From the NCBI GenBank assembly GCA_045542335.1, contig JAZQKV010000086.1, positions 1,478 through 65,477 of the forward strand: a DNA stretch of 64,000 bases, written 5' to 3'. Every line of letters begins with the position of its first letter. The first letter of the stretch is position 1. Below are positions 15,296 through 34,471 of the stretch, piece by piece. The notes under the pieces are model-generated. The model was not told the DNA's origin. It saw nothing but the letters and a program-made list of their open reading frames with translations, and ran no database searches. The stretch comes from Eubacteriales bacterium (lineage in GTDB: Bacteria; Bacillota; Clostridia; Oscillospirales; CAG-382). A program made the translations under genes and the position numbers.

Positions 15296-17512
15296 ATGAA
15301 AAACCTCCGGATATCAAAAGGCGCTCTTGTATTATTTCTGTGCGTCATTGTGCTTTTTTGCACTGTCAATATGTTCTCTCACAAAGCCTCTGCGGCAACT
15401 ATTAGTGAAGCAAGTCTCGCCGAAACCCATGTCCTCCTTGACTGGCAACCCACTGCTTGCGCTTTCTGGGAATCCACAAGCCGCATAGATCTTGCCATAA
15501 GCCCCAATGATGATTTTTATAAAAAATTTGTCTCATCTGCTGTCAGATTCACAAAAGATGACATCCCCGTCGGAAGTGTGATTTACATTGATTCCGGGTA
15601 TCAATACCGCCCTGATGGCTGGCAAACCGCAACAGGAAAAAACACTGCGACCCGTCCCGGAAATGTCACAACCTCATGCATTGAGGTTGACGAAACATGG
15701 TGGGGTAATTTTACACTGCGTGCCTTTAATGTAAGCCGTCCCGACGGTGCTTTGCTGAATGAAAAAGTTGACGAAGTTGAAAAGGCTCTGAGAATATACG
15801 TTCCCCGAAAATACCCTTATACCGAATTTACGTGGGAAAACGGCTTCTACGATTCCACCAAAGGCTCAACAATCGCAACCGGGACCGACCTTGCCAAAAA
15901 GTTTGTCGCAACACAGATTTTTTCAAAAGATCAGATTCCCGTAGGCTCTGTTATTACCATTGATTCAGGTTATCAATACCGTGCGAATCTCTGGGTTAAT
16001 ACGAGTACAAACGCATCGTCAAGACCGAATAATGTCACAACCGCAAGTGTCACCGTCACCGATACATGGTGGGGAAGTTATAACTATGTTGCCTTCAATA
16101 TATCCACCACCTCTCTTGCCGATATAAGCAGCAACTATCTCGAGGTTGCGTCCCACTTCAACATTACGCTTCCCGACGGTACAAAGTTTGTTCACCCCGA
16201 AGCAGAAGATCCGGTCGATCCGAATCCCGTTGTTATTCCCGACGATGATTCAGCTGTCCGTATTCTTTCCATTGGTAACAGCTATTCCGGCGATGCCACC
16301 ATATATGCGGGAAAAATCGCAGACGGTCTTGGGATAAAAGCGGAGTTCTACAACCTTTATTACGGTGGATGTACTATCGAGAATCATTATAATTTCTATC
16401 AGAGTGACAGTGCCCAATATGACTTTTATAAAGATATGACAGAATATGTAAGCACCAAAGTCACACTGAAGAATGTACTTGAAGCGGCACAGTTTGACTA
16501 TATTACATTCCAGCAAGGGTCGTGGCAATCTGACGATTATGCAAATTATGCACTTCTTGATGAGCTTATGGCGATTGCGAGAGAGTATCAGCCCGATGCC
16601 GAATTTTTGATTCACCAAACATGGGGGTACTGTGAAGCGAGAGCTTGTAGCGGGGATGCAGATCATACAACCGGATACAAAGGCTATGCAACAAGTGCTG
16701 ATATGTTCACAAAAGTTGAAGAGTGTTATGCAAATGCGGCTGCCGACAACGGAAACCTTAGAATAATCAAAAGCGGTAGGGCGATTGAACTTGCAAAAAC
16801 AGTTTTCACATACACAGACGATTATGGCAAAGAAAACTCCGTTTATTCCGACTTCAACTCGCATCTTTCAGGCAAAGGTGACTACATTGCCGGCTGTGTG
16901 TTTGTGGAAACCATTTTCGGTGATGATGAAGCAGATGTAAGAAATACAAGCTTTACTGCCGGTTTCGACGATGCCTATGTTCTGCGTGAAATTGCACATC
17001 AGGTTGTACACTCAACAAGCGGTGCCGCAATCTCATTTAACAGCAATATCTCCCCTACATATGCTCCCATCATGAAAAGTGCCGACAAGGATGGCTTTAA
17101 TTATGATGGCAGAACACGTCTTACTCTTACAAATGCCGCAAGCGGAAAAACCGTGATGGTTGTATATCAGAACTCCGACGGCACATTCCCCTCCCTTGAA
17201 TATATGCCTGAGGGAACCTTTAATCTCACAGCCGAGAAAAGCGGCTTTTTGCCCACCACTTTAAGCGTTTCGCTTACCCGTGATGGCAATACTACACTTC
17301 CCGGATTCTCCCTTGTCCCCGGCGACATAAAGGAAAATGAATCGGATTTTTCCGGTGACGGAATTATTGATATTGATGATTTACTTAGAATTTTAAGAGC
17401 GTTTACAAATAACTGCACTGAATATCTGAAAACAATAACCGATCTTAACGGCAACGGCGTTGCTGATGTGGAAGATTTTTCCCATGTCAAAGCAGGACTT
17501 ATATCGAAATAA
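15296..17512 (+). CDS. Secreted dockerin protein with a duplicated N-terminal domain of unknown function, a DUF4886/SGNH-like esterase domain, and an X-module + C-terminal dockerin
   Basis: A signal peptide is present. The tandem units of about 124 aa carry KKFV..F.KD.IPVGSVI.IDSGYQYR..W...RP.NVTT...WWG..AFN.S. ILSIGNSYSGDA is a GDSL-like block I. The X-module reads GTFNLTAEKSGFLPTTLSVSL, and the dockerin reads GDGIIDIDDLLRILRAF..DLNGNGVADVEDFSHVKAGL. Confidence 0.75.
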   Translation: MKNLRISKGALVLFLCVIVLFCTVNMFSHKASAATISEASLAETHVLLDWQPTACAFWESTSRIDLAISPNDDFYKKFVSSAVRFTKDDIPVGSVIYIDSGYQYRPDGWQTATGKNTATRPGNVTTSCIEVDETWWGNFTLRAFNVSRPDGALLNEKVDEVEKALRIYVPRKYPYTEFTWENGFYDSTKGSTIATGTDLAKKFVATQIFSKDQIPVGSVITIDSGYQYRANLWVNTSTNASSRPNNVTTASVTVTDTWWGSYNYVAFNISTTSLADISSNYLEVASHFNITLPDGTKFVHPEAEDPVDPNPVVIPDDDSAVRILSIGNSYSGDATIYAGKIADGLGIKAEFYNLYYGGCTIENHYNFYQSDSAQYDFYKDMTEYVSTKVTLKNVLEAAQFDYITFQQGSWQSDDYANYALLDELMAIAREYQPDAEFLIHQTWGYCEARACSGDADHTTGYKGYATSADMFTKVEECYANAAADNGNLRIIKSGRAIELAKTVFTYTDDYGKENSVYSDFNSHLSGKGDYIAGCVFVETIFGDDEADVRNTSFTAGFDDAYVLREIAHQVVHSTSGAAISFNSNISPTYAPIMKSADKDGFNYDGRTRLTLTNAASGKTVMVVYQNSDGTFPSLEYMPEGTFNLTAEKSGFLPTTLSVSLTRDGNTTLPGFSLVPGDIKENESDFSGDGIIDIDDLLRILRAFTNNCTEYLKTITDLNGNGVADVEDFSHVKAGLISK
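17354..17500 (+). other. Dockerin module (subtype A), C-terminal
   Basis: GDGIIDIDDLLRILRAFTNNCTEYLKTITDLNGNGVADVEDFSHVKAGL. Confidence 0.75.
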
Positions 17513-23209: not shown

Positions 23210-23246
23210 ATTCTCCTCTTTTCACAATGCCTTTACACAAAAAGCG

Positions 23247-23286
23247 TCGCCGCAGACAAGTCTTTCCTGTCTGCGGCGGTGTTTTT
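23247..23286. terminator. Bidirectional rho-independent terminator (ends the heme operon and the regulator gene)
   Basis: CGCCGCAGACA / TGTCTGCGGCG forms an 11-bp stem followed by GTGTTTTT. A-rich sequence lies on the other side. Confidence 0.85.
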
Positions 23287-23293
23287 AGCTTTT

Positions 23294-24442
23294 TTACTGT
23301 TCTGCCACACTCTTAAGTGCAGATTTTACATGAGAGAGGTCTTCGACTGTAACCGTGCCATCCTCATTTATGTCAAGGCGTTCAATGGTGTTGTCCTCGG
23401 TAAACTCGGAGAAGCCACGCATTACTCTTATAAAGTCGTCAATGTCAACAACTCCGTCGCCGTAAGGCTCGGAATAAGAGCCGGAAATGTCGCCGGGAGA
23501 AAGCGTGATGTCGCCAAGCGAAGCACCTGACGGGGTGACGGTAAATTCAACGGTATATGGCAGATAGCCGTTCTTGAGAATCTCGCCGTAATAGCTTCCG
23601 GGTGCGACTACAATGCTGAACGGAATGCTTCCGACAGCGGTATCCGGCGTTTCAAGCTGTGCGCTTCTCACAAGCTGATTCTTGTCGGAGGAGGTGTAAA
23701 TATTCAGCGTAGCAAGGTTTGAATATCCGCTTTCGGCGTTAACAATCGGCGTGTCTCCGTCGGCACGAATCGTCACAAGATTTCCGGTGATGCTTGCTTC
23801 GTCGGCATCATATGCAAAGGTAAATTCCGAGAGCACCGCACCCGTTTCTCCGTCCGCCGAAAGATAGAACACTCTTGAAGCATTGTCTATCTTTACAGGG
23901 GAAGCAGTGGTCGATGTCGGGAACACACCGGAAAGTGCACTGTCGGTAAGCTCCGCCGTTTCCAGACGCAGGGAGGATGCTGATTTGCTCTTGCCTTCGG
24001 CGACTTTATAGGTAAAACCGCACACGGTAGCCTTTGTGCTGAAATCTGCACCGTCCGCCTCGGTTGAAAGCGAAAGGTTTACGGTTGTAAGTGTGCCGTT
24101 GACAACATATTCAGGTGCGAGAAGGTTAAATCCCATGGCAGGCACAAAGCAAGCCGTCACCTCTGATTGCTCCGATGCACTTATTTCAAGAGCCGTTCCG
24201 TCTGCCGCACAAGGCACTATAACCGTGTTGTCATAGGAAAACACGAACTGTACCGAGCGCAGAGTGTCGGAGGTTACATCAAAATTCAGCGTGCAAATGC
24301 CATCCATTTCTTCTCCGACACTTTCGGTTATGCTGACGTATGCGGTTTTGTCACCCGTATGAGCAACGGCTGTGATAATTCCCACAACAATGGTAAGGGC
24401 AATCAGAACTGCGCTTACTGCAAAAATACTTTTTTTACGCAT
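23294..24442 (-). CDS. Membrane-anchored or secreted protein with cohesin-like beta-sandwich module(s), an X-module and a C-terminal dockerin
   Basis: The N-terminal hydrophobic anchor is IFAVSAVLIALTIVVGIITAV. The cohesin-like segment is ICTLNFDVTSDTLRSVQFVFSYDNTVIVP...GTLTTVNLSLS...CGFTYKVAEGKS. The X-module is GSYYGEILKNGYLPYTVEFTV. The dockerin is GDGVVDIDDFIRVMRGF..DINEDGTVTVEDLSHVKSAL. The RBS GGGGGAG sits 12 nt after the upstream stop. Confidence 0.7.
   Translation of the reverse strand: MRKKSIFAVSAVLIALTIVVGIITAVAHTGDKTAYVSITESVGEEMDGICTLNFDVTSDTLRSVQFVFSYDNTVIVPCAADGTALEISASEQSEVTACFVPAMGFNLLAPEYVVNGTLTTVNLSLSTEADGADFSTKATVCGFTYKVAEGKSKSASSLRLETAELTDSALSGVFPTSTTASPVKIDNASRVFYLSADGETGAVLSEFTFAYDADEASITGNLVTIRADGDTPIVNAESGYSNLATLNIYTSSDKNQLVRSAQLETPDTAVGSIPFSIVVAPGSYYGEILKNGYLPYTVEFTVTPSGASLGDITLSPGDISGSYSEPYGDGVVDIDDFIRVMRGFSEFTEDNTIERLDINEDGTVTVEDLSHVKSALKSVAEQ
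23315..23461 (-). other. Dockerin module (subtype A), C-terminal
   Basis: GDGVVDIDDFIRVMRGFSEFTEDNTIERLDINEDGTVTVEDLSHVKSAL. Confidence 0.75.
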
Positions 24443-24454
24443 TTTAACTCCCCC

Positions 24455-27400
24455 TTACTCCGAAACTGTATCCGACGCTTCACAGCCCATAACTCTTATT
24501 TCGGTAACAGCGGGCCAACGGTCGGTGGTTGTATTGTTGAGCTCTTTGATTTTAATGCTTGTTGTTGTGACAGGCTCATCAAATTCAAGCCACATCATTT
24601 CGCTTGTCTTTTTCATTGCAAGCCAGGCGGTCGTGCCGTCTGAAAGTTCAACAGTGCAGGATGTAAAGTAATCATCATGGTCAAAATCCGCCCGAATCTT
24701 TATTCCCACAGAGCTTACACACACGCTTCTTCCAAAGTCTATGCTTGCATAATCGTCGCTTGCATCGCCCTGATTAAGTCCCCAGCTCATAACGGGGTAG
24801 CCAAGACCTGTTGCGTCGTAATAGTGCAGAAGATTCATTTCAAAGCCATCAATAAGCGCACGGGCACGACAGTAATTTGAGCTGTAACGTGAAGAAACCG
24901 TCGCGTGCGGATAAATACCGGTGGCATCGTCGAGGTCAAAGGGATTGAGCGCAAGGTTACGCACAGAGGAAAGCTCGTCGTTGGTGGGAATTCTTGCGCT
25001 TGCAGTGTTCTCGGTGTAAAGCGTAAAGGCTTCCGTCGGGAAAACCGTTGACGCATACGAGGGAAATGTGTAAGTGAACACACCGTCAGGAACATAGATT
25101 ATGCTTTCGGCAACCTTGGGTGTAAAGGTGAAAGCAAGATATTTATGTCCTTCGGGAAGTGTTACGGTAAAGGTGTCACCCTGAGCATATTTGCGGGGAA
25201 TTGTGATGTACGCAGATTCGCTGTCTGTTGCAGAAGTACTTACGCCGTCTGCTCCGGCAAAGCTTATGGTTATCTCACCGGGCATTTCAAGACCTGCAAG
25301 CTTTTTCTTTGCCTGAGTGTCAAGCATTTCATAGAAATCACGTTTGCTGTCCTTTTCGGTGGCATCCCTCAGGTCATTGTCGCTCCAATTGACATTTTTA
25401 TCATACTTACCATAGGCGGGAACGCCAAGGTCAATCCATGCTCTTATGGTGCGAAGCTCGGCATCGGTAAGGTTATACGGTTCAAGAAGTGTGAAAAGTC
25501 CGGTGCTTGTCTTTGAGCCATACTCATAGGGCTCAAGCATTTCAGGCTTACTCATGGAATATATCCAATTGATATAGCTGTTTTGATAATCTCCGATCCA
25601 TTGAATATTGCTCTTTGGAGTTGAGCCTGTAAGCACGAGATAGGAAAGCGGGAAGGACTTCTTCATTCTTGGCGCAGGCATGAGCTTGCCGCCGAGATAG
25701 ATTTTTGAAGGCTCGGACACAATACTGCTTTGCTCGCCGCCAACTTTTATGTCGTATGCATACAGTGCAAAATCTGCGCCTATTTCGCCGCTCGCATTGG
25801 GTACTTCCATTGCAAGGATATTCTGACCCTGCACAAAATACTTTGATATTGCAGTGCCGAGGTCAAATATGTCATACCCTGTATTATAGCCGTTCTTTTC
25901 CCATATAAGGTTTCCGTTGAGATAAAGCTTTGGGTCTTCATCATAAAGTGCATACAGCTTGATGCCGCAATTTGAATACTCCGCAAGATTCTCAATATTA
26001 AAGGCTGTCCTTGCATAAAGTGTATTTCCGTCGCCTTTGTATTCCGTATTATAGCCCACGGCTTTCATGTTTCCAAACGGTGCGTCGTTAAGTGTCCACG
26101 AAGAATCATCAAAAGTGTTTGATGTCCATGAGGAATCGGGAGCTTCTGCGGTGTAAACATTGGTCCAGGTAGCTCTCGGATCAACCAGATATTTTTCGTC
26201 AAATGCCTTAAAATGGGCATAAAGACCAAGGTCAAAATATCCGCCGTAAGCATTTGTAGGGTTGGTAAGTCTGACGGAAATCACGTTATCGCCCACAACA
26301 AGGGCATCCTTGAAGGCTTCGTCAAGGTAAACATCTCTGTAACCCCAACCGGTATAATAGCCTCCGCTTCCGCCGGCGGTATTGTTAAGGAACTTTGTTC
26401 CGTTGACGTAAAATTCGGGAGCTTGTGCATAAAAGGCATTGAGGCTGAAGTCTGCCTTTGCAAGCATATCCGCAGTAACGGTGAAATGCTTTCTTACCCA
26501 AAGATAGCCTGCAACCTGAAGTTCGCCCCATGTCGTTGCGTAGGTTCTCTTTGTGCCGTTACCAAAGGGAGCATTGCCGGTTGACCAGGACGAAGCATCA
26601 AAGTCTGCGGCGTGAACAGCCGTGCCGAGGGTATCACTTGAAGCGACGTTATAGCTCCAGCTTGAACCCTTGTCGATAAGTGTTGTGGTATAGCTTTCGG
26701 TAATGAGGTTTCTTTCCACAATACCGCTTGCAAGCAATGCCATATCATAGCCTGCCTCGCCGTTTGCCTCATTTGGAGCAGCCGTCGCAAGGACATTTGT
26801 ACCCTCGCGAAGATACTTTGTGCAGGTTGAGCCAAGGTCAATCGTTGTGTAACCTGTTGTATAGCCGGAGGTAGAATAGATGAGGTTGCCGTTAAGGTAA
26901 ATGCTCGGGTCTTGGTCGTAAAGCAGATTCATTTTAAGGGTCACGCCCTCATATTCTGAAAGGTCTTCAATTTCAAAGCTCTGACGGACATACATGGTGT
27001 TTCCACCGGCAACTACAAAATTTGAGTTTGTTCCCACGCATTTTACGTTTCCGATGGGACCTTCACCCGATGTCCATGAACTGTCATCAAAGTCCACGGC
27101 GGTCCAGTTTTCGGGAGCACCCGTCGCATTGTCAATCACGCTGTATTTAAGCTCACTTCTTGCTTCAACAAGGTACTTTTCGTCGTACTTGCGGAAATCT
27201 GCGTAAAGTCCAAGGTCAAACGCACCGCCATTTGCATTTGCGTTTGTTGGGTTGGTAAGTCTGACGGCGATTGTGTTTGTGCCAACCTTTAAGGCACTCT
27301 TGAAATCTTCGTCAAGGTAAACGTCACGGTAGCCCCAGCTTGTGAACCAGCCGCCGCTTCCGGAGGTGGTATTATTAAGGAACTTTTTGCCGTTGACGTA

Positions 27401-30124
27401 AAATTCGGGTGCTTGTGCGTAATACGCATTAAGTCTGAAATCCGCTTTGTCGAGTGTGGTCTGATCGGGAATGGTAAAGGTCTTTCTCACCCAAAGGTAT
27501 CCCGAGGCGTTCTTTTCATACCATACTGTATTGTGTGTGACCGTACCGTTTCCGAAAGGTGCAGCCCCCGTGAGCCAAGTGGAGGTATCGTAATCCTCTG
27601 CATACCACTCTGCACCGTCAAGCGAATTTGAGGTATTCATGAAGTATGTCCAGTCCGCACCATGATCTATAAGAGTATCGGTGTAAGCTTCGAGGATTGC
27701 GTCGTCGGGGATGACTATGTCGCCCTCGGGAAGAACAACAGGCTTATTGTCGGAATACATTTTGAATGAGAACACAGGTGCTTGCAAGTACGGTGCTTGA
27801 ACCTTTACAGCAATGGTGTTCTCACCCATGCGGAGCATTGAAATCATATCGTCCGTAAAGAAATTCCGTACGGTTTCCGAAGCACCGCTTCCGGAAAGGG
27901 CAAGCTCTCCGTTGAGATATACTGTATAGTTGCCCGTTGAGATAACCTCAAACAAAGGCGTGTACTCACTTATCATGTAGTTATCGGCGGTAAACTTACG
28001 TCTCAAATAAAGCTCACCGCTTTCCCAGACGGAGTTGACTTCGCAAAGTCCGTTTGCGTGTGCACCAAAAGGAGCATAAAGTCCATGCCAAGCGGAGGAA
28101 TCAAAGTCCTCGGCGTACCATGTTCCGCTTTGCGCTTCAAAGGAAACGTCCCATTTATCGTCCGCAAGTATCGCAACGGGACGGGCATCAGAGTCAAGTC
28201 CTGTCATAGAAGAGGCTGAAACGGCAACCATCGCCTGGGAGATATTCGAATAATCGGTGGTTGTTTTTTCGTTAAATATCTTCTGAACCTCATCCTCGTA
28301 GTCGAAGCCGATCGGCTCGTCTGTATACGGATCATAGTCCGCATAAATGTCATCCTCCTGCCATGCTTCACGGGTTATTTTCTGCACTCCCTTTTTGAGT
28401 GCAAGTGTGGGGGTTGCGTTTGCAGGGGGAACATTGTCCTTGTTCTCGTGGCAGCCAACGCACGAAAAGCTCTCGCCGGGCATAAGTGTTGTCCAGCTTC
28501 GCATACTTGCTATTACACAGCCCTCATCGTCAAGCACCTGGAAATAAAGCGGTGTATCCGAGGGAGCTTCAAACAGGCATGAGCCGTCCTCCTCTATGGG
28601 TACGCTTCCAAGCACCGCCTTTACGTCCCATGCGCCATAGCCCGTCGAAATCGGAGAGAACGGGTCTGCACCGGGCTGAACGGTAGCACCTATTGCGTAG
28701 TTTCTGAATTTGAGTGCAACGACACGGAGTTCTTTTGCCGTTCCTCTTTCAACGCCCGTCATTCCCTCGCCTGCGTAAACGTTTCCGATATAATATGTTC
28801 CGCTTTTCTTTGCATAGTTTACCATAGAGCTTCTGAGGAACATTTCACGGGTCTTTACAGGGACAACCTGTGCCGGAGAATAGTTGTTTTCAAAGTACGA
28901 AATGGGTACAAGGTTTTCCGTGGAGCTTCCGTCGCTAAGATAAAGGTTAAACTGTGCATCTGACGACGGAATTTTCCACACATCCCAGTTGTCGGGATCT
29001 TCGATAATGCCGTCAAGGTCGGCAGCAATAAAGAAGGTTTCGCTGTCAATGGGATAAGGATATCGGTAAATTGCGCCGACCTGACCATATTGGTCAACGT
29101 TGTCTGTCTTTTCGGAATACTCGTCAGGGAAAACAAAATTCACAGCATCCTTGCTGTTTCTTTCAATGTTGACATCAACCGTAACAAGCTTTCCGAGCTG
29201 AGTTGTGTGGTGACCCGTGGCAATCGCCATATACTTTCCGCTTTCGCCGGGGATTTCACGGGCGTGAATCAGAGAGGTGGGGAAGTTTGAATTGTTGCCG
29301 TAAAGCTCGGTCTGATTGGTGCCGTCGGGCATCATCTGGAAAAGGCTCTGGATATAGAGCTGTGTTCTGTCGTTATAGTCCCAACGGGTGTAAATAATTC
29401 TGCCGTCGCCTGTGAGCTTTGGGGTAGTGGTATGAACCTGATCATAACCGATTCTTCTGATGTTTGAGCCGTCGGGATTCATTATGAAAAGATTTGATAC
29501 AGGCACTTTCCAGCAGTCAACCGTCTGGATAATCCTGCTTGAAGAGAACATGATATTTCCGTCGGGAAGATATATAGGCTCGAAATCAGAAACACCGTCG
29601 CCGAAAGTAAGCTGTTTTACACTTCTGTCGGCAAGGGTCATTTCGTAAATTTTGAAATCCTCATATTTGTTTGCTCTCTGTGAATATATAACTGTTTTTC
29701 CGTCAGCCGAAACATCCGGGTCACGGACAACGCCGCTTGGCAGGTCAACGAGTATTTCCTCGGTTACAGTGATAGAACTTTCAGAGGCCTTTTCAACAGA
29801 GAGAAGTACCATTCTTGATGGTGTGCCCTTTATGCTCGCTTCACCTTTTTCGGGAAGTGATGTACCGTAAATGATTTCCTCGGCAAGATCCTCCGTATAG
29901 GAAAAATGCGAGCCGCCCATGCGCTTGATTTTGGTGAGAATATATGTACTTGAATGTTCAAGCGCACGGTCAACAACCGCCATTTGATCAGCGGTGAGGT
30001 TTTCAACTGTTATTGTGGTAACATCACCAACAGCGGCTCCAACCTTTGCGGTATCGCTGTAAATCACCGTCATGGGAAGAACAAGTACAAGGGTGAGCAC
30101 GAGTGAAAGTATTCTGTTTTTCAT
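24455..30124 (-). CDS. 1889-aa secreted protein. It has a TolB/PD40-type beta-propeller, an HzsA-middle-domain-like region with one CxxCH heme c site, five galactose-binding-like (CBM-type) modules, and a C-terminal discoidin (F5/8 type C)-like domain.
   Basis: The signal peptide is MKNRILSLVLTLVLVLPMTVIYS. PD40-like repeats include VSADGKTVIYSQR..IYLPDGNIMFSSSR. The heme region is DGSCLFEAPSDTPLYFQVLDDEGCVIASMRSWTTLMPGESFSCVGCHE. There are five modules with the D(D/S)SxW..(A/G)P(F/I)G motif. The C-terminus is ALIDGFEMN...VTEIRVMG. The RBS AGGGAGGA sits 15 nt after the upstream stop. Confidence 0.75.
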   Translation of the reverse strand: MKNRILSLVLTLVLVLPMTVIYSDTAKVGAAVGDVTTITVENLTADQMAVVDRALEHSSTYILTKIKRMGGSHFSYTEDLAEEIIYGTSLPEKGEASIKGTPSRMVLLSVEKASESSITVTEEILVDLPSGVVRDPDVSADGKTVIYSQRANKYEDFKIYEMTLADRSVKQLTFGDGVSDFEPIYLPDGNIMFSSSRIIQTVDCWKVPVSNLFIMNPDGSNIRRIGYDQVHTTTPKLTGDGRIIYTRWDYNDRTQLYIQSLFQMMPDGTNQTELYGNNSNFPTSLIHAREIPGESGKYMAIATGHHTTQLGKLVTVDVNIERNSKDAVNFVFPDEYSEKTDNVDQYGQVGAIYRYPYPIDSETFFIAADLDGIIEDPDNWDVWKIPSSDAQFNLYLSDGSSTENLVPISYFENNYSPAQVVPVKTREMFLRSSMVNYAKKSGTYYIGNVYAGEGMTGVERGTAKELRVVALKFRNYAIGATVQPGADPFSPISTGYGAWDVKAVLGSVPIEEDGSCLFEAPSDTPLYFQVLDDEGCVIASMRSWTTLMPGESFSCVGCHENKDNVPPANATPTLALKKGVQKITREAWQEDDIYADYDPYTDEPIGFDYEDEVQKIFNEKTTTDYSNISQAMVAVSASSMTGLDSDARPVAILADDKWDVSFEAQSGTWYAEDFDSSAWHGLYAPFGAHANGLCEVNSVWESGELYLRRKFTADNYMISEYTPLFEVISTGNYTVYLNGELALSGSGASETVRNFFTDDMISMLRMGENTIAVKVQAPYLQAPVFSFKMYSDNKPVVLPEGDIVIPDDAILEAYTDTLIDHGADWTYFMNTSNSLDGAEWYAEDYDTSTWLTGAAPFGNGTVTHNTVWYEKNASGYLWVRKTFTIPDQTTLDKADFRLNAYYAQAPEFYVNGKKFLNNTTSGSGGWFTSWGYRDVYLDEDFKSALKVGTNTIAVRLTNPTNANANGGAFDLGLYADFRKYDEKYLVEARSELKYSVIDNATGAPENWTAVDFDDSSWTSGEGPIGNVKCVGTNSNFVVAGGNTMYVRQSFEIEDLSEYEGVTLKMNLLYDQDPSIYLNGNLIYSTSGYTTGYTTIDLGSTCTKYLREGTNVLATAAPNEANGEAGYDMALLASGIVERNLITESYTTTLIDKGSSWSYNVASSDTLGTAVHAADFDASSWSTGNAPFGNGTKRTYATTWGELQVAGYLWVRKHFTVTADMLAKADFSLNAFYAQAPEFYVNGTKFLNNTAGGSGGYYTGWGYRDVYLDEAFKDALVVGDNVISVRLTNPTNAYGGYFDLGLYAHFKAFDEKYLVDPRATWTNVYTAEAPDSSWTSNTFDDSSWTLNDAPFGNMKAVGYNTEYKGDGNTLYARTAFNIENLAEYSNCGIKLYALYDEDPKLYLNGNLIWEKNGYNTGYDIFDLGTAISKYFVQGQNILAMEVPNASGEIGADFALYAYDIKVGGEQSSIVSEPSKIYLGGKLMPAPRMKKSFPLSYLVLTGSTPKSNIQWIGDYQNSYINWIYSMSKPEMLEPYEYGSKTSTGLFTLLEPYNLTDAELRTIRAWIDLGVPAYGKYDKNVNWSDNDLRDATEKDSKRDFYEMLDTQAKKKLAGLEMPGEITISFAGADGVSTSATDSESAYITIPRKYAQGDTFTVTLPEGHKYLAFTFTPKVAESIIYVPDGVFTYTFPSYASTVFPTEAFTLYTENTASARIPTNDELSSVRNLALNPFDLDDATGIYPHATVSSRYSSNYCRARALIDGFEMNLLHYYDATGLGYPVMSWGLNQGDASDDYASIDFGRSVCVSSVGIKIRADFDHDDYFTSCTVELSDGTTAWLAMKKTSEMMWLEFDEPVTTTSIKIKELNNTTTDRWPAVTEIRVMGCEASDTVSE
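28448..28462 (-). other. CxxCH heme c attachment motif (CVGCH)
   Basis: The plus strand reads gtggcagccaacgca, which on the minus strand is TGC GTT GGC TGC CAC. Confidence 0.7.
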
Positions 30125-30139
30125 TGTTTATTCCTCCCT

Positions 30140-32788
30140 TCAGTTGTTTACAAGCACAAGGTCGGTTGCATACGCCCTGCCGCTTCTTGTTTCGGTAATT
30201 GTAAAGGTAAGAGTTCCGCCTTCAGCAAAATCTTCGGGTATTTCAAAGGACGAGGGGAACTGCACCGTATAAAGTGCGCCGTATTTCATTGCCGGAAGCT
30301 CAAAGCTCTTGCTTTCAAGAGAGTTTCCGTCGGCATCTGCAAGGGTAATTGTGACGGTCGCCTCCCTTGCATATTTATCTTGCTTTCTTACGGTGAAATA
30401 ATCGGGTACGGCACCGGGAGCAATCTTTGAGTAGAGAGTTGCTCCATCGGAGGCAGTGGCAAAAATCTGCTCGATACCGTAGGCTTCATTCTCCGCACCT
30501 ATTGAAAGTACATATTCCGTAAGGTCGTCGATTTCGCTTTGGGAAAGGTTCAGACCCTCGGTATCATGCACGACACTTTCACGGGCTGTCGCAAACTTTC
30601 CGTTAAAGCGGTACGGTGCGCTTCTCCAGACCTCAACAAGAGTCGATGTATCAAAGGGTCTGTATTCCCAGCCGTCGGTTTCGGGGTCAATAATTCCGTT
30701 ATCGTGAAGCTTCATATCCGTGTAAAGGGGCGCAGGATGGCAGGTGATACACCCCGCCTCATCAAACAGCTGCTTTCCGTTTTGTGCCGATGACGTGAGT
30801 GTTCCGTCACGGTTAAGATAAGGAGATGCAACCGGAGAAAGGCTCTTTAAATATTCGTCGATTGCCGCCATGCCTTCCTCGGGAATAACGTTGAATTGAA
30901 TGTATTTCATACCTGCTCTGACAGCAGTTTCGGCGTTTGCTCTGATACCCGTCACCATTACGGGCGGTGTTCTGTGGGAATAAAGCATACTCTTTGCGCT
31001 CTTGTGTGTTCCGATGCCGTCGTTGAGGTTGTCCCAGTTAAGTCCGTCTACGCGTGCGTCGGGATGACAACTGTTACAGGACTGCCAGCTCTGATAGCAA
31101 AGGGTTGCGTCACTCCAGAGGATATGTCCTTGGCGCACCACATCATTTTCGGGCTGTGCACCAAGAGAAACGGTTTCTACCTCCATGGTATCAAGTGAAA
31201 GTGCGGCAATGTCGCCTGTAAAATACTGTGCAAAATACGCTGTATTTCCATCGGCGGCAACCGCAACGCCCCTCGGACCATTGCCCGAAAGAGCAATTCT
31301 CTGTCTTGCACCATCAAGGAAATTAAGGCTGTTTGCGGTGCTCGAAAGAGTACCTGTGCTTTCCTCGGAACTCAATTTATCGTTGAGTGTGGGAATGTCA
31401 ATTACCATCGCCTCATGTACACCGGAAAGAGCAACGACCAGCTTGTCGCCGGAAATTTCAATACCCCATGGATTTGCCGCGCCAAGGTCAGTCTTGTCAA
31501 GGAGTACGGTGGCATAAGGCGTGTCGGTAGTGCAGTCGAAAATCGTTACTGCGTTGGTGTTTATCCAACCTCTGTCAAGCTGGGTCGTGGGATAGGCGTA
31601 TCTTCCGAGCACATGAGTTATGTAAAGCCTTCCGTTTCCGTCAGCGACAACATCCTTTACACCCGATGCGCCGTTGATAATAGGCTCGGTCTTTATAACG
31701 GTGTTTGTTTCAAGGTCAATGACCGAAACCTTTGCGGAAACGACGTCCTCCGTTGCCGCATCATCTGTAAGGTGATGCACTGCATAAAGCTTACCGTCTG
31801 ATACTGCAAGGGCTATCGGCTCACGGATGACGTCAATGTGCGTAGTTATACTGTAATCGGAGGTGTCAATGACCGAAATTGTGTTTGAAAACCTATTGGC
31901 AACATAAAGCTTACCGTCTGAAAGCGCCATGTCCGTGGGGGTGTGACCGACTTCAAGAGTTTCAATGACCGCAAAGTCGTCTGCGTCAAGCACGCTTACA
32001 ACACCCGAAAGACCTCCTTCGGCAACATAGACCATTCCGTCTTCTGCCATTACGCCGTTTACGTCATCCGAAGCAATGTAAGTCTTTGCGATTTCACCGT
32101 CGGAAAGCCTGAGCTTATAGACCGCTCCCCTTGTTTCGTCGCCTACCGCCGCATAATTCCCGTCAATAACGGCAAGAGATGCGGGAGAAATGTATTCAGA
32201 TTCATCTATATAACGCTCTCCCTCAAAAATTGCGTCGGTTAAAGTCTTGCCCTTGCCCGAAAGCAGTATAGCCAGGTCCTCTGTGTCCACCTTACCGTCC
32301 GAGGTAAGGTCGGAAAGGGGATTTTCAAGATTTGCTTTCTTTTTATTGTAGTCCGCATTAAGGAGTGCAAGATCCTCCCCGTCAATTCTTCCGTCGGTGT
32401 TTATGTCACCACCGAAGGCACGCAGATCAACAGCCGCAAGCTCCTCGCCCGACTGCACCTTTACGGAGTTTATTCTGTAAGGCAAAAATCCGTCTGCCTC
32501 TATAACCAGGGTATAATAGCCTTCAACGGGAATATCCGAAAGCTTAAAGCTTTTTCCCTTGGTGGTGGTCCTGCTTACCGTAGCCATTGTTTCGGCGTCA
32601 AGAAGCGAAACCGTGTATACCTTTTCAACGGTATTTACATCAAGCGAGCCGTTTACGGAATATCCGTTTGAAAACAGATCAACAATTCCGGAAAGTCCCA
32701 CATCGGAAACGGCAAACACCGCAATTCCGAGAACAATCACCGTCGCTACAGCGCAAATTGCCACTGTCAGTTTTTTCTTACCGAGCAT
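30140..32788 (-). CDS. Secreted or anchored protein with an X-module, a canonical N-terminal dockerin, a YVTN-type beta-propeller and a C-terminal di-heme cytochrome c peroxidase/MauG-like domain
   Basis: The anchor or signal is LTVAICAVATVIVLGIAVFAV. The X-module is GYYTLVIEADGFLPYRINSV. The dockerin is DINTDGRIDGEDLALL..DLTSDGKVDTEDLAILL. YVTN-like blades include DGKLYVANRFSNTISVID and DGKLYAVHH. The CCP-like part is GHILWSDATLCYQSWQSCNSCHPD, GKQLFDEAGCITCHPAPLYTD and TLVEVWRSAPYRFNG. I prefer the ATG at 32788 (GGGAGG 8 nt upstream) over the TTG at 32794. Confidence 0.78.
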   Translation of the reverse strand: MLGKKKLTVAICAVATVIVLGIAVFAVSDVGLSGIVDLFSNGYSVNGSLDVNTVEKVYTVSLLDAETMATVSRTTTKGKSFKLSDIPVEGYYTLVIEADGFLPYRINSVKVQSGEELAAVDLRAFGGDINTDGRIDGEDLALLNADYNKKKANLENPLSDLTSDGKVDTEDLAILLSGKGKTLTDAIFEGERYIDESEYISPASLAVIDGNYAAVGDETRGAVYKLRLSDGEIAKTYIASDDVNGVMAEDGMVYVAEGGLSGVVSVLDADDFAVIETLEVGHTPTDMALSDGKLYVANRFSNTISVIDTSDYSITTHIDVIREPIALAVSDGKLYAVHHLTDDAATEDVVSAKVSVIDLETNTVIKTEPIINGASGVKDVVADGNGRLYITHVLGRYAYPTTQLDRGWINTNAVTIFDCTTDTPYATVLLDKTDLGAANPWGIEISGDKLVVALSGVHEAMVIDIPTLNDKLSSEESTGTLSSTANSLNFLDGARQRIALSGNGPRGVAVAADGNTAYFAQYFTGDIAALSLDTMEVETVSLGAQPENDVVRQGHILWSDATLCYQSWQSCNSCHPDARVDGLNWDNLNDGIGTHKSAKSMLYSHRTPPVMVTGIRANAETAVRAGMKYIQFNVIPEEGMAAIDEYLKSLSPVASPYLNRDGTLTSSAQNGKQLFDEAGCITCHPAPLYTDMKLHDNGIIDPETDGWEYRPFDTSTLVEVWRSAPYRFNGKFATARESVVHDTEGLNLSQSEIDDLTEYVLSIGAENEAYGIEQIFATASDGATLYSKIAPGAVPDYFTVRKQDKYAREATVTITLADADGNSLESKSFELPAMKYGALYTVQFPSSFEIPEDFAEGGTLTFTITETRSGRAYATDLVLVNN
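30737..30751 (-). other. CxxCH heme c attachment motif 2 (CITCH) of the CCP/MauG-like domain
   Basis: The plus strand reads atggcaggtgataca, which on the minus strand is TGT ATC ACC TGC CAT. Confidence 0.75.
31064..31078 (-). other. CxxCH heme c attachment motif 1 (CNSCH) of the CCP/MauG-like domain
   Basis: The plus strand reads atgacaactgttaca, which on the minus strand is TGT AAC AGT TGT CAT. Confidence 0.75.
32255..32413 (-). other. Dockerin module (subtype B: both Ca-binding loops canonical), N-terminal position
   Basis: GGDINTDGRIDGEDLALLNADYNKKKANLENPLSDLTSDGKVDTEDLAILLSG. Confidence 0.75.
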
Positions 32789-32814
32789 TTTCAATGCCTC
32801 CCATGATAGAATTA

Positions 32815-33582
32815 TTAAGAGTATGTGTGAAGTGAATCCGATGGAATCATGTCCACAAAAAGAAGTGTAAATACAAGTGCAAAAAATCCGATTATGACGA
32901 AAGCCTTCGCAAATCGCCTAAATCGCCCGACCCTTCGCATATGCAGATAACCGCTGTAAAAAAGCAAAGTCAGAAGTGAAAAGCACTCCTTGACGTCCCA
33001 CGTCCAGAACTCGCCCCACACTTCATTTGCCCACGTTGCGCCGCAAAGCATACCCGAAAGCATAAAGGGCAACGCCGTTTTCACGAGCAGACCGCAGGCG
33101 TTTTCACATTCCCCTGCCCTATCAGTAAAAATCATCCCCCACACACAGCACACAAAGGACACGGCGCAAAGAGTATAGGAAATCATGTATAAAAAAACAT
33201 GGGGTACAAAAAACGGTGAATCAAGTGCCGGCGGAAAGTGCCAGGCACCGCTGTCAGACATAAAGCCAACGCCGACAAGAATTATGCCCGAAAGTGCCGG
33301 GAAAAATTTCAATATGAACATTTGCTTTTTGACCATACACATATATATGGCTGAAAATGTCATCGTCACCGCAAGGAAAGTAAGCACCTGATACATACTC
33401 ACAAACGGCACATATCCGTTTATAACGGCGTTTCTCAAAACAAGAAACAGATTTATGCACATACCGCCTGCGTAAAGCACATTCATAAGCTTTGGAAGCT
33501 TTCCTGTTGCTATAAGAAGCGCACTCACAATATAAAGCGCCGCACCGCAGAAGGTTATTGCCATAAGCAGCTTTACGGTCAT
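32815..33582 (-). CDS. ccsA: Cytochrome c biogenesis protein CcsA/ResC (System II heme-handling subunit)
   Basis: The Trp-rich WWD motif WANEVWGEFWTWDVKE is at nt 32986-33033. Conserved His contexts are PPALDSPFFVPHV and YSGYLHMR. The protein is polytopic. The ATG overlaps the ccsB stop (ATGA). Confidence 0.85.
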   Translation of the reverse strand: MTVKLLMAITFCGAALYIVSALLIATGKLPKLMNVLYAGGMCINLFLVLRNAVINGYVPFVSMYQVLTFLAVTMTFSAIYMCMVKKQMFILKFFPALSGIILVGVGFMSDSGAWHFPPALDSPFFVPHVFLYMISYTLCAVSFVCCVWGMIFTDRAGECENACGLLVKTALPFMLSGMLCGATWANEVWGEFWTWDVKECFSLLTLLFYSGYLHMRRVGRFRRFAKAFVIIGFFALVFTLLFVDMIPSDSLHTYS

Positions 33583-34325
33583 GCCTTATCACCGCCTTCC
33601 GAAGTATCTTGCTCCGACGGTGCATTACCGTCCTTTTTCTTTTTTCTTTCCGGTGCAAACGCCGTGACAAAAGCTCCAGCCACCATGCAGATTATTCCGA
33701 CAAGGCTTATAAACTCCCCGGGGTCACGCTTTATAAGCAGATTCACCTGCAAGCTCTGCCCCATTCCGTAAAAGCCCATGAGATATATTTTATATCCGTT
33801 TTTCCTTACAGGCTTGTTAACAGAAATATCAAGGCTCTCGGCAAGGCGGCTTCTCTTTTGAGTAAATGTAAGCACTCCGTTGTACTCCTTATCCGAGCCG
33901 TCGGGATAAGTGACAATTTCGAAGGAATCAAGCGACATTTCGAAGGGAAGACTTACACTTTCATAGTTTCCGTCGGACTTTTCGTTTTGTATTTCCGAAT
34001 ACACCAAATCGGGATCGGGCGGCATAGAAACGTTGTATTTTGCACCCGTAAAGTTGTAAATCGTAATTCCCGCTAAGAAAAACACCATTCCGAAATGAAG
34101 TGCAAGAACGCCGATTGACCGGAGTGTAGGTCTTGACGTGTACGCAAGTACAAGCACAGCACCGGTCGCCGACAACACAAGCAACAATGCCGATATAACA
34201 AAAGTCACAGGCGTATCTGCAGAAAATGCAATTCTGTGTGCCACATATACCGTACAAAGCACAGCTTCCACGGCGCACAATATTCCAGACAAACTTAAAA
34301 TCTTCTTTTTTGCGCCACTTGACAT
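33579..34325 (-). CDS. ccsB: Cytochrome c biogenesis protein CcsB/ResB, short form
   Basis: The TM His context is VLALHFGMVFFLAG. The ResB-like C-terminal motif is ISVNKPVRKNGYKIYLMGF, followed by a last TM helix. I chose the ATG at 34325 (MSSGAKKK..). The ORF-track ATG at 34361 lies inside a palindrome and has no RBS. The AAGGAGG for 34325 is 14 nt upstream, so the start is not certain. Confidence 0.75.
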   Translation of the reverse strand: MSSGAKKKILSLSGILCAVEAVLCTVYVAHRIAFSADTPVTFVISALLLVLSATGAVLVLAYTSRPTLRSIGVLALHFGMVFFLAGITIYNFTGAKYNVSMPPDPDLVYSEIQNEKSDGNYESVSLPFEMSLDSFEIVTYPDGSDKEYNGVLTFTQKRSRLAESLDISVNKPVRKNGYKIYLMGFYGMGQSLQVNLLIKRDPGEFISLVGIICMVAGAFVTAFAPERKKKKDGNAPSEQDTSEGGDKA

Positions 34326-34349
34326 ATGGTTTCTCGTTCCCTCCTTATT

Positions 34350-34373
34350 CACGTTAACCATTCGGTTAACGTG
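34350..34373. promoter_or_regulatory. Perfect 10-bp inverted repeat in the ccsB leader (candidate operator or RNA hairpin)
   Basis: CACGTTAACC-ATTC-GGTTAACGTG. It lies between the predicted TSS and the RBS of ccsB. Confidence 0.5.
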
Positions 34374-34442
34374 TCAATATATCGGCGTACCTGTAAACAT
34401 TTTGGTTAATTTTACCAAAGCACCCAATCGATTCACAAGTAA

Positions 34443-34471
34443 AATATATCATATTTTCACAAATTTGTCAA
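34443..34471 (-). promoter_or_regulatory. Sigma-A promoter of the ccsB-ccsA-heme protein operon
   Basis: The minus strand reads TTGACA-17 nt-TGATATATT (extended -10). The leader is about 110 nt. Confidence 0.6.

Follow-up and report, generated by a model that had tools for sequence, protein, structure and literature searches.

A predicted divergent cohesin encoded by the last gene of a clostridial heme enzyme operon: a putative adaptor scaffoldin

Cohesin-dockerin systems are known chiefly as assemblers of carbohydrate-active enzymes. In the window analyzed here (the whole stretch of 64,000 nucleotides), an operon encoding a di-heme/beta-propeller protein and an HZS-alpha-like protein of 1889 aa ends with a gene for a small, apparently secreted protein carrying a dockerin, which raises the question of what such a protein contributes to a c-type heme enzyme. 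An earlier note on this DNA had proposed that it combines a cohesin with a dockerin and bridges the dockerin of the di-heme protein to whatever binds dockerins of the type-A class.

The gene is an ATG-initiated open reading frame, representing the fifth of five genes on the minus strand (Table 1). It starts 12 nt after the stop codon of the gene for the 1889-aa protein, and an intrinsic terminator follows its own stop codon, in agreement with the earlier description of this gene as the last one of the heme operon. Likewise, the three module motifs quoted in that description are all present in the translation.

Table 1. Features of the operon and of the 382-aa protein within the window, together with CohC proteins encoded outside of it.
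Feature	Position	Strand	Remarks
Whole gene: secreted protein with cohesin, X module, and dockerin	23294..24442	-	382 aa, ORF listing
Signal peptide, residues 1-27, AVA↓HT	24362..24442	-	by-eye sequence reading
Divergent cohesin module, residues ~33-208	23819..24346	-	structurally closest to type II cohesins
X module, residues ~216-316, CarboxypepD_reg/PEGA-like beta-sandwich	23495..23797	-	phmmer, Pfam
Type-A dockerin, residues ~320-378	23309..23485	-	Pfam Dockerin_1, clade membership
Ribosome-binding site GGGGGAG	24448..24454	-	5 nt ahead of ATG, abuts TAA of the 1889-aa gene; from sequence
Intrinsic terminator closing the operon	23238..23278	-	13-bp stem, 9 GC pairs, T-run
Rest of the operon: promoter, ResB-like, CcsB-like, di-heme/propeller, and HZS-alpha-like genes	24455..34471	-	
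Promoter-like site	34471-34443	-	
Di-heme/propeller gene, 884-aa product	30140-32794	-	CarboxypepD_reg module, dockerin, beta-propeller, di-heme domain
HZS-alpha-like gene, 1889-aa product	24455-30124	-	HZS_alpha middle domain
CarboxypepD_reg-like X module, residues 61-119 of the 884-aa protein, ahead of its dockerin	32438..32614	-	Pfam E 7e-5
Proposed ligand: non-type-A dockerin, residues 127-179 of the 884-aa di-heme/propeller protein	32258..32416	-	Pfam Dockerin_1 25.7 bits
CohC protein C21_1304_3121	outside the window	-	two copies
CohC protein C67_6728_9937	outside the window	-	
CohC protein C22_30756_37445	outside the window	+	
CohC protein C114_11011_18366	outside the window	-	

The N-terminus of the 382-aa protein consists of MRKK, followed by a hydrophobic stretch of 23 residues up to the AVA↓HT site. 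The AXA site is retained at the same position in the ortholog P0129 (AFA↓LQ) and also occurs in other relatives; read by eye, these sites favor a cleavable signal peptide where the earlier note had named a hydrophobic anchor or signal. The X module noted ahead of the dockerin is homologous to the modules that are found before 12 further dockerins in this genome (phmmer, E-values down to 1.5e-14) and could thus be confirmed. Among the segments upstream of type-A dockerins, 12 of 23 matched CarboxypepD_reg (PF13620) and 10 of 23 matched PEGA in Pfam; for the X module of the 382-aa protein itself, only a faint PEGA match (E 0.072) and none to PF13620 was obtained.

The C-terminal dockerin was recognized by Dockerin_1 (PF00404) at residues 328-376 of the full protein (E 8e-6, 26.4 bits versus a cut-off of 22.9), with 27.8 bits for the C-terminal piece alone. 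As read from the sequence, it comprises two repeated calcium-binding loop-helix segments, the second loop (DINEDGTVTVED) being canonical and the first (EPYGDGVVDIDD) degenerate, with positions 5, 9, and 12 kept, but not position 3. This asymmetry of the repeats suggests a single binding mode. In the dockerin tree, type-A dockerins form a supported clade (97/93) representing approximately 23 proteins of this genome, mostly giant secreted ones, and including the 382-aa protein, whereas the dockerin of the di-heme protein falls outside; the distinction between subtypes A and B made in the earlier note is hence real. A further member within the window is a DUF4886 (esterase-like) protein of 738 aa (15296-17512, plus strand), which carries a C-terminal CarboxypepD_reg-like X module and type-A dockerin of the same kind.

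The assignment of the N-terminal module as a cohesin had been called weak, and sequence searches initially seem to bear this out. The Pfam Cohesin family (PF00963) gave no match on the full protein at E ≤ 1, and a six-frame search of the genome with this family did not list the module. When the module was searched in isolation, a match covering profile positions 11-125 of 139 was obtained in register (E 0.024); its score of 15.2 bits stays below the family threshold of 24.1, so that the Pfam check suggested in the earlier note resulted in a nearly full-length, but sub-threshold, match. Only one of the 21 clade members described below was touched by Pfam Cohesin. Searches of the PDB sequences by phmmer and with two family profiles found no match for the module. 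A Pfam match to RNA_pol_Rpb2_45 at residues 189-237 (19-23 bits, cut-off 28.2) was dismissed as a chance finding.

Structure prediction was more informative. A single-sequence AlphaFold run on the whole protein resulted in an uninformative model (pLDDT 36), whereas AlphaFold2 applied to the module with a family alignment of 23 relatives, none of them a recognized cohesin, reached a pLDDT of 82.7 and a pTM of 0.81. The predicted structure is a nine-stranded jelly-roll superposable on solved cohesins, and the best 44 matches in a Foldseek search against the PDB were cohesins, the best 25 of them being type II cohesins (E 2.3e-6 to 8e-5, TM up to 0.65), with 3fnk_C in the first place (E 2.3e-6, TM 0.64). 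The first non-cohesin, a CBM3a, followed at rank 45. The absence of a cohesin-fold prediction had been named in the earlier note as evidence that would speak against the assignment; such a prediction is present.

A profile comparison independent of the structure model pointed in the same direction. The clade profile was aligned by hhalign with a reference profile built on 32 cohesins recognized by Pfam within the same bacterial family, resulting in a modest signal of 80.4% probability (E 1.3e-5, 100 columns), in which the strands SYDN-TVIVP and F-Y/F-K-V-AEGK are in register. Controls remained far below this value, namely 0.6-2.1% for reversed profiles, at most 0.1% for 20 column-shuffled decoys, and 0.5% for the X-module profile. 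The beta-sandwich of approximately 175 aa represents a single module; of the 'one or two' proposed earlier, one stands (residues ~33-208), and the candidate second cohesin at residues 190-280 was rejected, as phmmer and the AlphaFold model assign this stretch to the end of the first module and the start of the X module. We consider a cohesin fold of the N-terminal module very probable and, on the predicted structure and the profile alignment, regard the module as a genuine, strongly divergent cohesin.

Type II cohesins are binders of X-dockerin units. The best structural matches of the module (E 2e-6 to 5e-5, TM 0.55-0.65, ~170 aa in size) are type II cohesins of scaffoldins serving as anchors or adaptors, namely ScaA/ScaB of A. 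cellulolyticus and SdbA/OlpB/ScaF of C. thermocellum (entries 3FNK, 2BM3, and 2B59). However, sequence identity to these cohesins is as low as 8-15%, and the Pfam family model fails on the module. Moreover, the X module of the 382-aa protein appears to be CarboxypepD_reg-like, whereas that of CipA/ScaA is Ig-like.

Relatives of the module are rare. In a word-indexed protein database, only the query itself was found, and two relatives were added by use of a profile; HMMER, run exhaustively against 1.8 billion representative proteins, returned four true relatives. The top E-value in the latter search (6e-14) belonged to P0003, a vertebrate-looking Ig-repeat protein of 2549 aa that matched query residues 147-200 in nine stretches and was rejected as an apparently repeat-amplified chance match. 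Scans of genomes and metagenomes raised the number of relatives to approximately 25. According to these searches, the module belongs to a rare clade that is not annotated as cohesin. It heads three kinds of proteins, namely proteins of ~440 aa, giant Ig-repeat proteins, and small cohesin-dockerin proteins. In the giant members, the module is N-terminal and the C-terminal repeats appear SLH-like by eye, a layout resembling that of anchoring scaffoldins of the SdbA type. Small cohesin-dockerin relatives, for example P0004, are found singly among housekeeping genes, an observation that speaks against the adaptor reading proposed below.

At 15 of 19 clade loci, the module gene is immediately preceded, on its own strand, by a gene for a secreted protein with an X module and a dockerin at its C-terminus; the gaps between partner and module gene range from -11 to 129 nt and are mostly below 45. 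Two partner proteins were scanned, and both their CarboxypepD_reg and Dockerin_1 domains scored above the Pfam cut-offs. Ten genomes bearing the module were scanned for dockerins; seven of them feature a dockerin immediately upstream of the module gene, and in G164 (Anaerovorax) and G166 this is the sole dockerin detected in the genome. The loci come from six or more lineages, Anaerovorax, Monoglobales, and Oscillospiraceae among them, so that the pairing is not one inherited accident. This conserved pairing of clade and dockerin genes is the strongest functional evidence obtained in this study, and the cohesin module of the 382-aa protein probably binds a dockerin of some kind.

Two further observations were made at the clade loci. 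The partner proteins feature an N-terminal conserved domain of ~100 aa (GEYYALV(I/V)VEGI...I.YIDQ.TA...GTVYLGGS) that precedes the CarboxypepD_reg-dockerin part and has no Pfam match; it was seen at L006:629-1477 (reverse-complement coordinates), L007-L013, L015, L018, and L021-L025. At L014, L019, and L020 (genomes G151, G152, and G150, respectively), the polypeptide continues after the divergent module with a Pfam-positive cohesin (38.6 bits for L019, 51 bits for L020, by eye for L014), and the upstream gene encodes a cytoplasmic-looking protein instead of a dockerin protein.

To which dockerin the module might bind is suggested by the di-heme protein, which carries near its N-terminus the same pair of CarboxypepD_reg module and dockerin (X-Doc) as the clade partners. 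A profile built from 15 partner dockerins was run against the approximately 37 dockerins of the genome and placed the di-heme dockerin at rank 1 with 42.2 bits, a small margin above ranks 2 and 3 (39.1 and 37.6 bits); the dockerin of the 382-aa protein itself reached rank 11 (28.4 bits). In the dockerin tree, the partner dockerins lie outside the type-A clade, as does the di-heme dockerin, which forms a long branch in a polytomy with them; because of this polytomy and of only 73 alignment columns, it is not placeable together with the partner dockerins. The family of the di-heme protein comprises more than 2,300 homologs, and the X-Doc N-terminus is common only to the two closest members. Within three operons, the X-Doc is conserved to a similar degree as the catalytic part of the di-heme protein (68-72% versus 71-76% identity). 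The di-heme gene is located two genes upstream of the cohesin gene and, hence, is not its direct neighbor.

Comparison of related operons suggested that the fifth gene accompanies the X-Doc. The contigs compared here are in line with a conserved core of four genes. The independent metagenome contig L062 encodes one of the two closest di-heme homologs and is of sufficient length to show the whole operon. Here, an ortholog of the 382-aa protein is encoded directly after the HZS-alpha-like gene (58% identical along 220 aa, where the contig ends), and the di-heme protein carries the X-Doc. Since this synteny refers to one contig, whose source is rather closely related (70% identity of the di-heme proteins), shared ancestry could explain it. 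The fifth gene is absent from the operons whose di-heme protein lacks the X-Doc (L064, L065, and G141). Other tethers are found in two of them, namely an alpha-like protein with a dockerin in L064, and SLH and esterase domains in G141; L065 has none. The HZS-alpha-like protein of L064 (L064:7967-13249, 1760 aa) features a C-terminal dockerin together with RicinB and F5/8-type-C modules, indicating that the tether can sit on either subunit. G141 represents a different genus within the same family, and its alpha-like and di-heme genes occur in the opposite order. Its di-heme/propeller protein (L060:13110-17690 on contig C24, 1526 aa) additionally contains SASA and GDSL esterase domains as well as SLH repeats, all in one polypeptide. 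This fusion hints at a carbohydrate-ester-related role of the heme enzyme, which may be anchored to the cell wall.

The 382-aa protein is the smallest, stand-alone version of a cassette of cohesin, X module, and type-A dockerin (Coh-X-DocA) that recurs in the genome. A protein with a non-type-A dockerin is co-encoded with each of four Coh-X-DocA proteins, one of them being the 382-aa protein, and another dockerin gene lies no more than two genes away from five of the seven cohesin-bearing genes. For example, the non-type-A dockerin genes C22_26868_30740 (plus strand) and C114_18385_19266 (minus strand) lie 16-18 nt upstream of giant cohesin-X-DocA proteins, the product of the former having an N-terminal X-Doc like that of the di-heme protein. 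No paralog of the cohesin type of the 382-aa protein was detected in the genome by phmmer. In four other proteins, the position directly before the X module and type-A dockerin is occupied by a second divergent cohesin family, designated CohC (motif FG(I/L/F)(G/K)YD.(S/T)VL), which reached 94% hhalign probability against real cohesins and gave no Pfam call at E ≤ 0.1. CohC modules, the N-terminal cohesin of C114 (32.5 bits), and the N-terminal cohesin of C7_54531 represent candidate acceptors for the type-A dockerin of the 382-aa protein.

Based on genome context, the bridging role proposed in the earlier note gains independent support, because the clade is habitually encoded beside CarboxypepD_reg-dockerin genes, the di-heme dockerin ranks first in the partner profile, and synteny of the gene is confined to the dockerin-bearing operon form. 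In the proposed mechanism, the 382-aa protein would be exported by the Sec pathway, and its N-terminal divergent cohesin would bind the N-terminal X-Doc of the di-heme/beta-propeller protein, the partner of the 1889-aa HZS-alpha-like protein. The C-terminal X module and type-A dockerin would insert into a cohesin accepting the dominant dockerin class of the genome, so that the pair of heme enzyme proteins would be joined to the cell-surface cohesin-dockerin network. We give about an even chance to this reading of the protein as a putative ScaC-like monovalent adaptor that bridges the dockerin of the heme enzyme to the type-A dockerin network.

In ScaC of Ruminococcus flavefaciens, the specificity of the cohesin differs from that of the cohesins bound by its own dockerin, and a wider set of proteins is recruited (PMC5429695). 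For the 382-aa protein, a comparable difference may be hinted at by the two distinct dockerin classes of the genome and by clade partners whose dockerins are not of type A. It shares the architecture of this adaptor type, both being small secreted proteins that combine a signal peptide with a single cohesin and a single dockerin and lack a catalytic module. In addition, the ScaC cohesin structure (5LXV) appeared at rank 26 of the Foldseek matches, and 5lxv_B was the best PDB sequence match of the dockerin. However, beyond the fold, no sequence relationship is detectable, and the 382-aa protein has an X module inserted between cohesin and dockerin. Its gene is located in the operon of the presumed cargo, whereas that of ScaC resides in the sca cluster, and a c-type heme enzyme, not a hemicellulase, would be this cargo.

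Alternatively, the cohesin-fold module may not bind dockerins at all, and the 382-aa protein could add an accessory, third component to the heme enzyme, having a structural, chaperone-like, or substrate- or polymer-binding function, contacting the enzyme by another surface and being tethered by its own X-dockerin. The distance of the module from canonical cohesins, reflected by the sub-threshold Pfam match and the empty profile searches of the PDB, would fit such a function. The jelly-rolls of cohesins and CBMs are, moreover, structurally close, as illustrated by the CBM3a heading the non-cohesin matches, and approximately 12 relatives are ~440-aa proteins headed by the module that end in an uncharacterized domain. 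Nevertheless, no CBM is found among the 44 best structural matches, and it is difficult to account for the frequent pairing with dockerin genes, seen even in genomes having only one dockerin, unless cohesin and dockerin interact. We regard an accessory subunit as unlikely, though worth keeping in view.

If the module does bind dockerins, the identity of its ligand has to be considered. Recognition of type-A X-dockerins, including its own, would make the protein a chain extender or multimerizer within the type-A network, in which case little could be concluded from the operon context about its cargo. A precedent exists in the amylosome of R. bromii, where the cohesin of Amy4/Sca1, an amylase of 1356 aa, binds its own dockerin (PMC4611034). 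The type II cohesins found as best structural matches are, furthermore, classical binders of X-dockerin units, an X module is present on all type-A dockerins, and the Coh-X-DocA cassette is a recurrent one. Amy4/Sca1 is similar to the 382-aa protein in that a cohesin and a C-terminal dockerin are combined in one protein within a system outside cellulose degradation; however, the 382-aa protein has no enzyme module, and its context points to another dockerin. The middling rank of its own dockerin in the partner profile, the position of the partner dockerins outside the type-A clade, and the specific co-occurrence of the gene with an X-Doc-bearing di-heme protein make binding of this kind decidedly unlikely. 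Alternatively, the protein could serve all non-type-A dockerins of the genome (for example, those of C22_26868, C49_39597, and C14_481) as a general adaptor without being dedicated to the heme enzyme. This view is compatible with C22_26868, having an N-terminal X-Doc, taking rank 2 in the partner profile, and with ScaC, which accepts whole groups of dockerins (PMC5429695). Such a broad role has a slim chance, since C22_26868 is co-encoded with a Coh-X-DocA protein of its own, the non-type-A dockerins are heterogeneous, and the gene is missing from the examined operons whose di-heme protein lacks the X-Doc.

Returning to the dedicated adaptor, we searched the literature for a bacterial precedent for the recruitment of a cytochrome enzyme by cohesin and dockerin and found none, the nearest case being that of ANME archaea. 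In these organisms, dockerin and cohesin proteins as well as abundant extracellular c-type cytochromes were described, and attachment of functional proteins to the surface was proposed (PMC9012536). Both cases have in common that cohesin-dockerin modules occur alongside extracellular c-type cytochromes, but in the ANME archaea neither a specific link between a heme enzyme and a cohesin nor an operon-encoded adaptor was shown. Tentatively, and with somewhat less than even confidence, we propose a broader reading, in which the 382-aa protein and its approximately 25 relatives form a cohesin clade invisible to Pfam that is organized in two-gene modules with a cognate CarboxypepD_reg-dockerin protein in several orders of Clostridia and was co-opted here as a dedicated adaptor for a c-type-cytochrome (hydrazine-synthase-like) enzyme. 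This would represent the first recruitment of a heme redox enzyme by a bacterial cohesin-dockerin pair.

Adaptor scaffoldins as such are already known; new are the Pfam-invisible cohesin clade, its conserved pairing with CarboxypepD_reg-dockerin proteins, and its use in the operon of a c-type heme enzyme. Since Pfam misses the whole clade as well as CohC, the numbers of cohesins in gut Clostridia are underestimated. If the adaptor reading is true, the site of action of a hydrazine-synthase-like heme enzyme found in gut and rumen Clostridia is the cell surface, beside giant fiber-associated proteins, which would help to limit the range of possible substrates. A single cohesin and a single dockerin represent a concrete pair that can be tested. 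As cognate cohesin and dockerin genes tend to adjoin in these genomes, it may become possible to predict binding specificities for uncultured bacteria.
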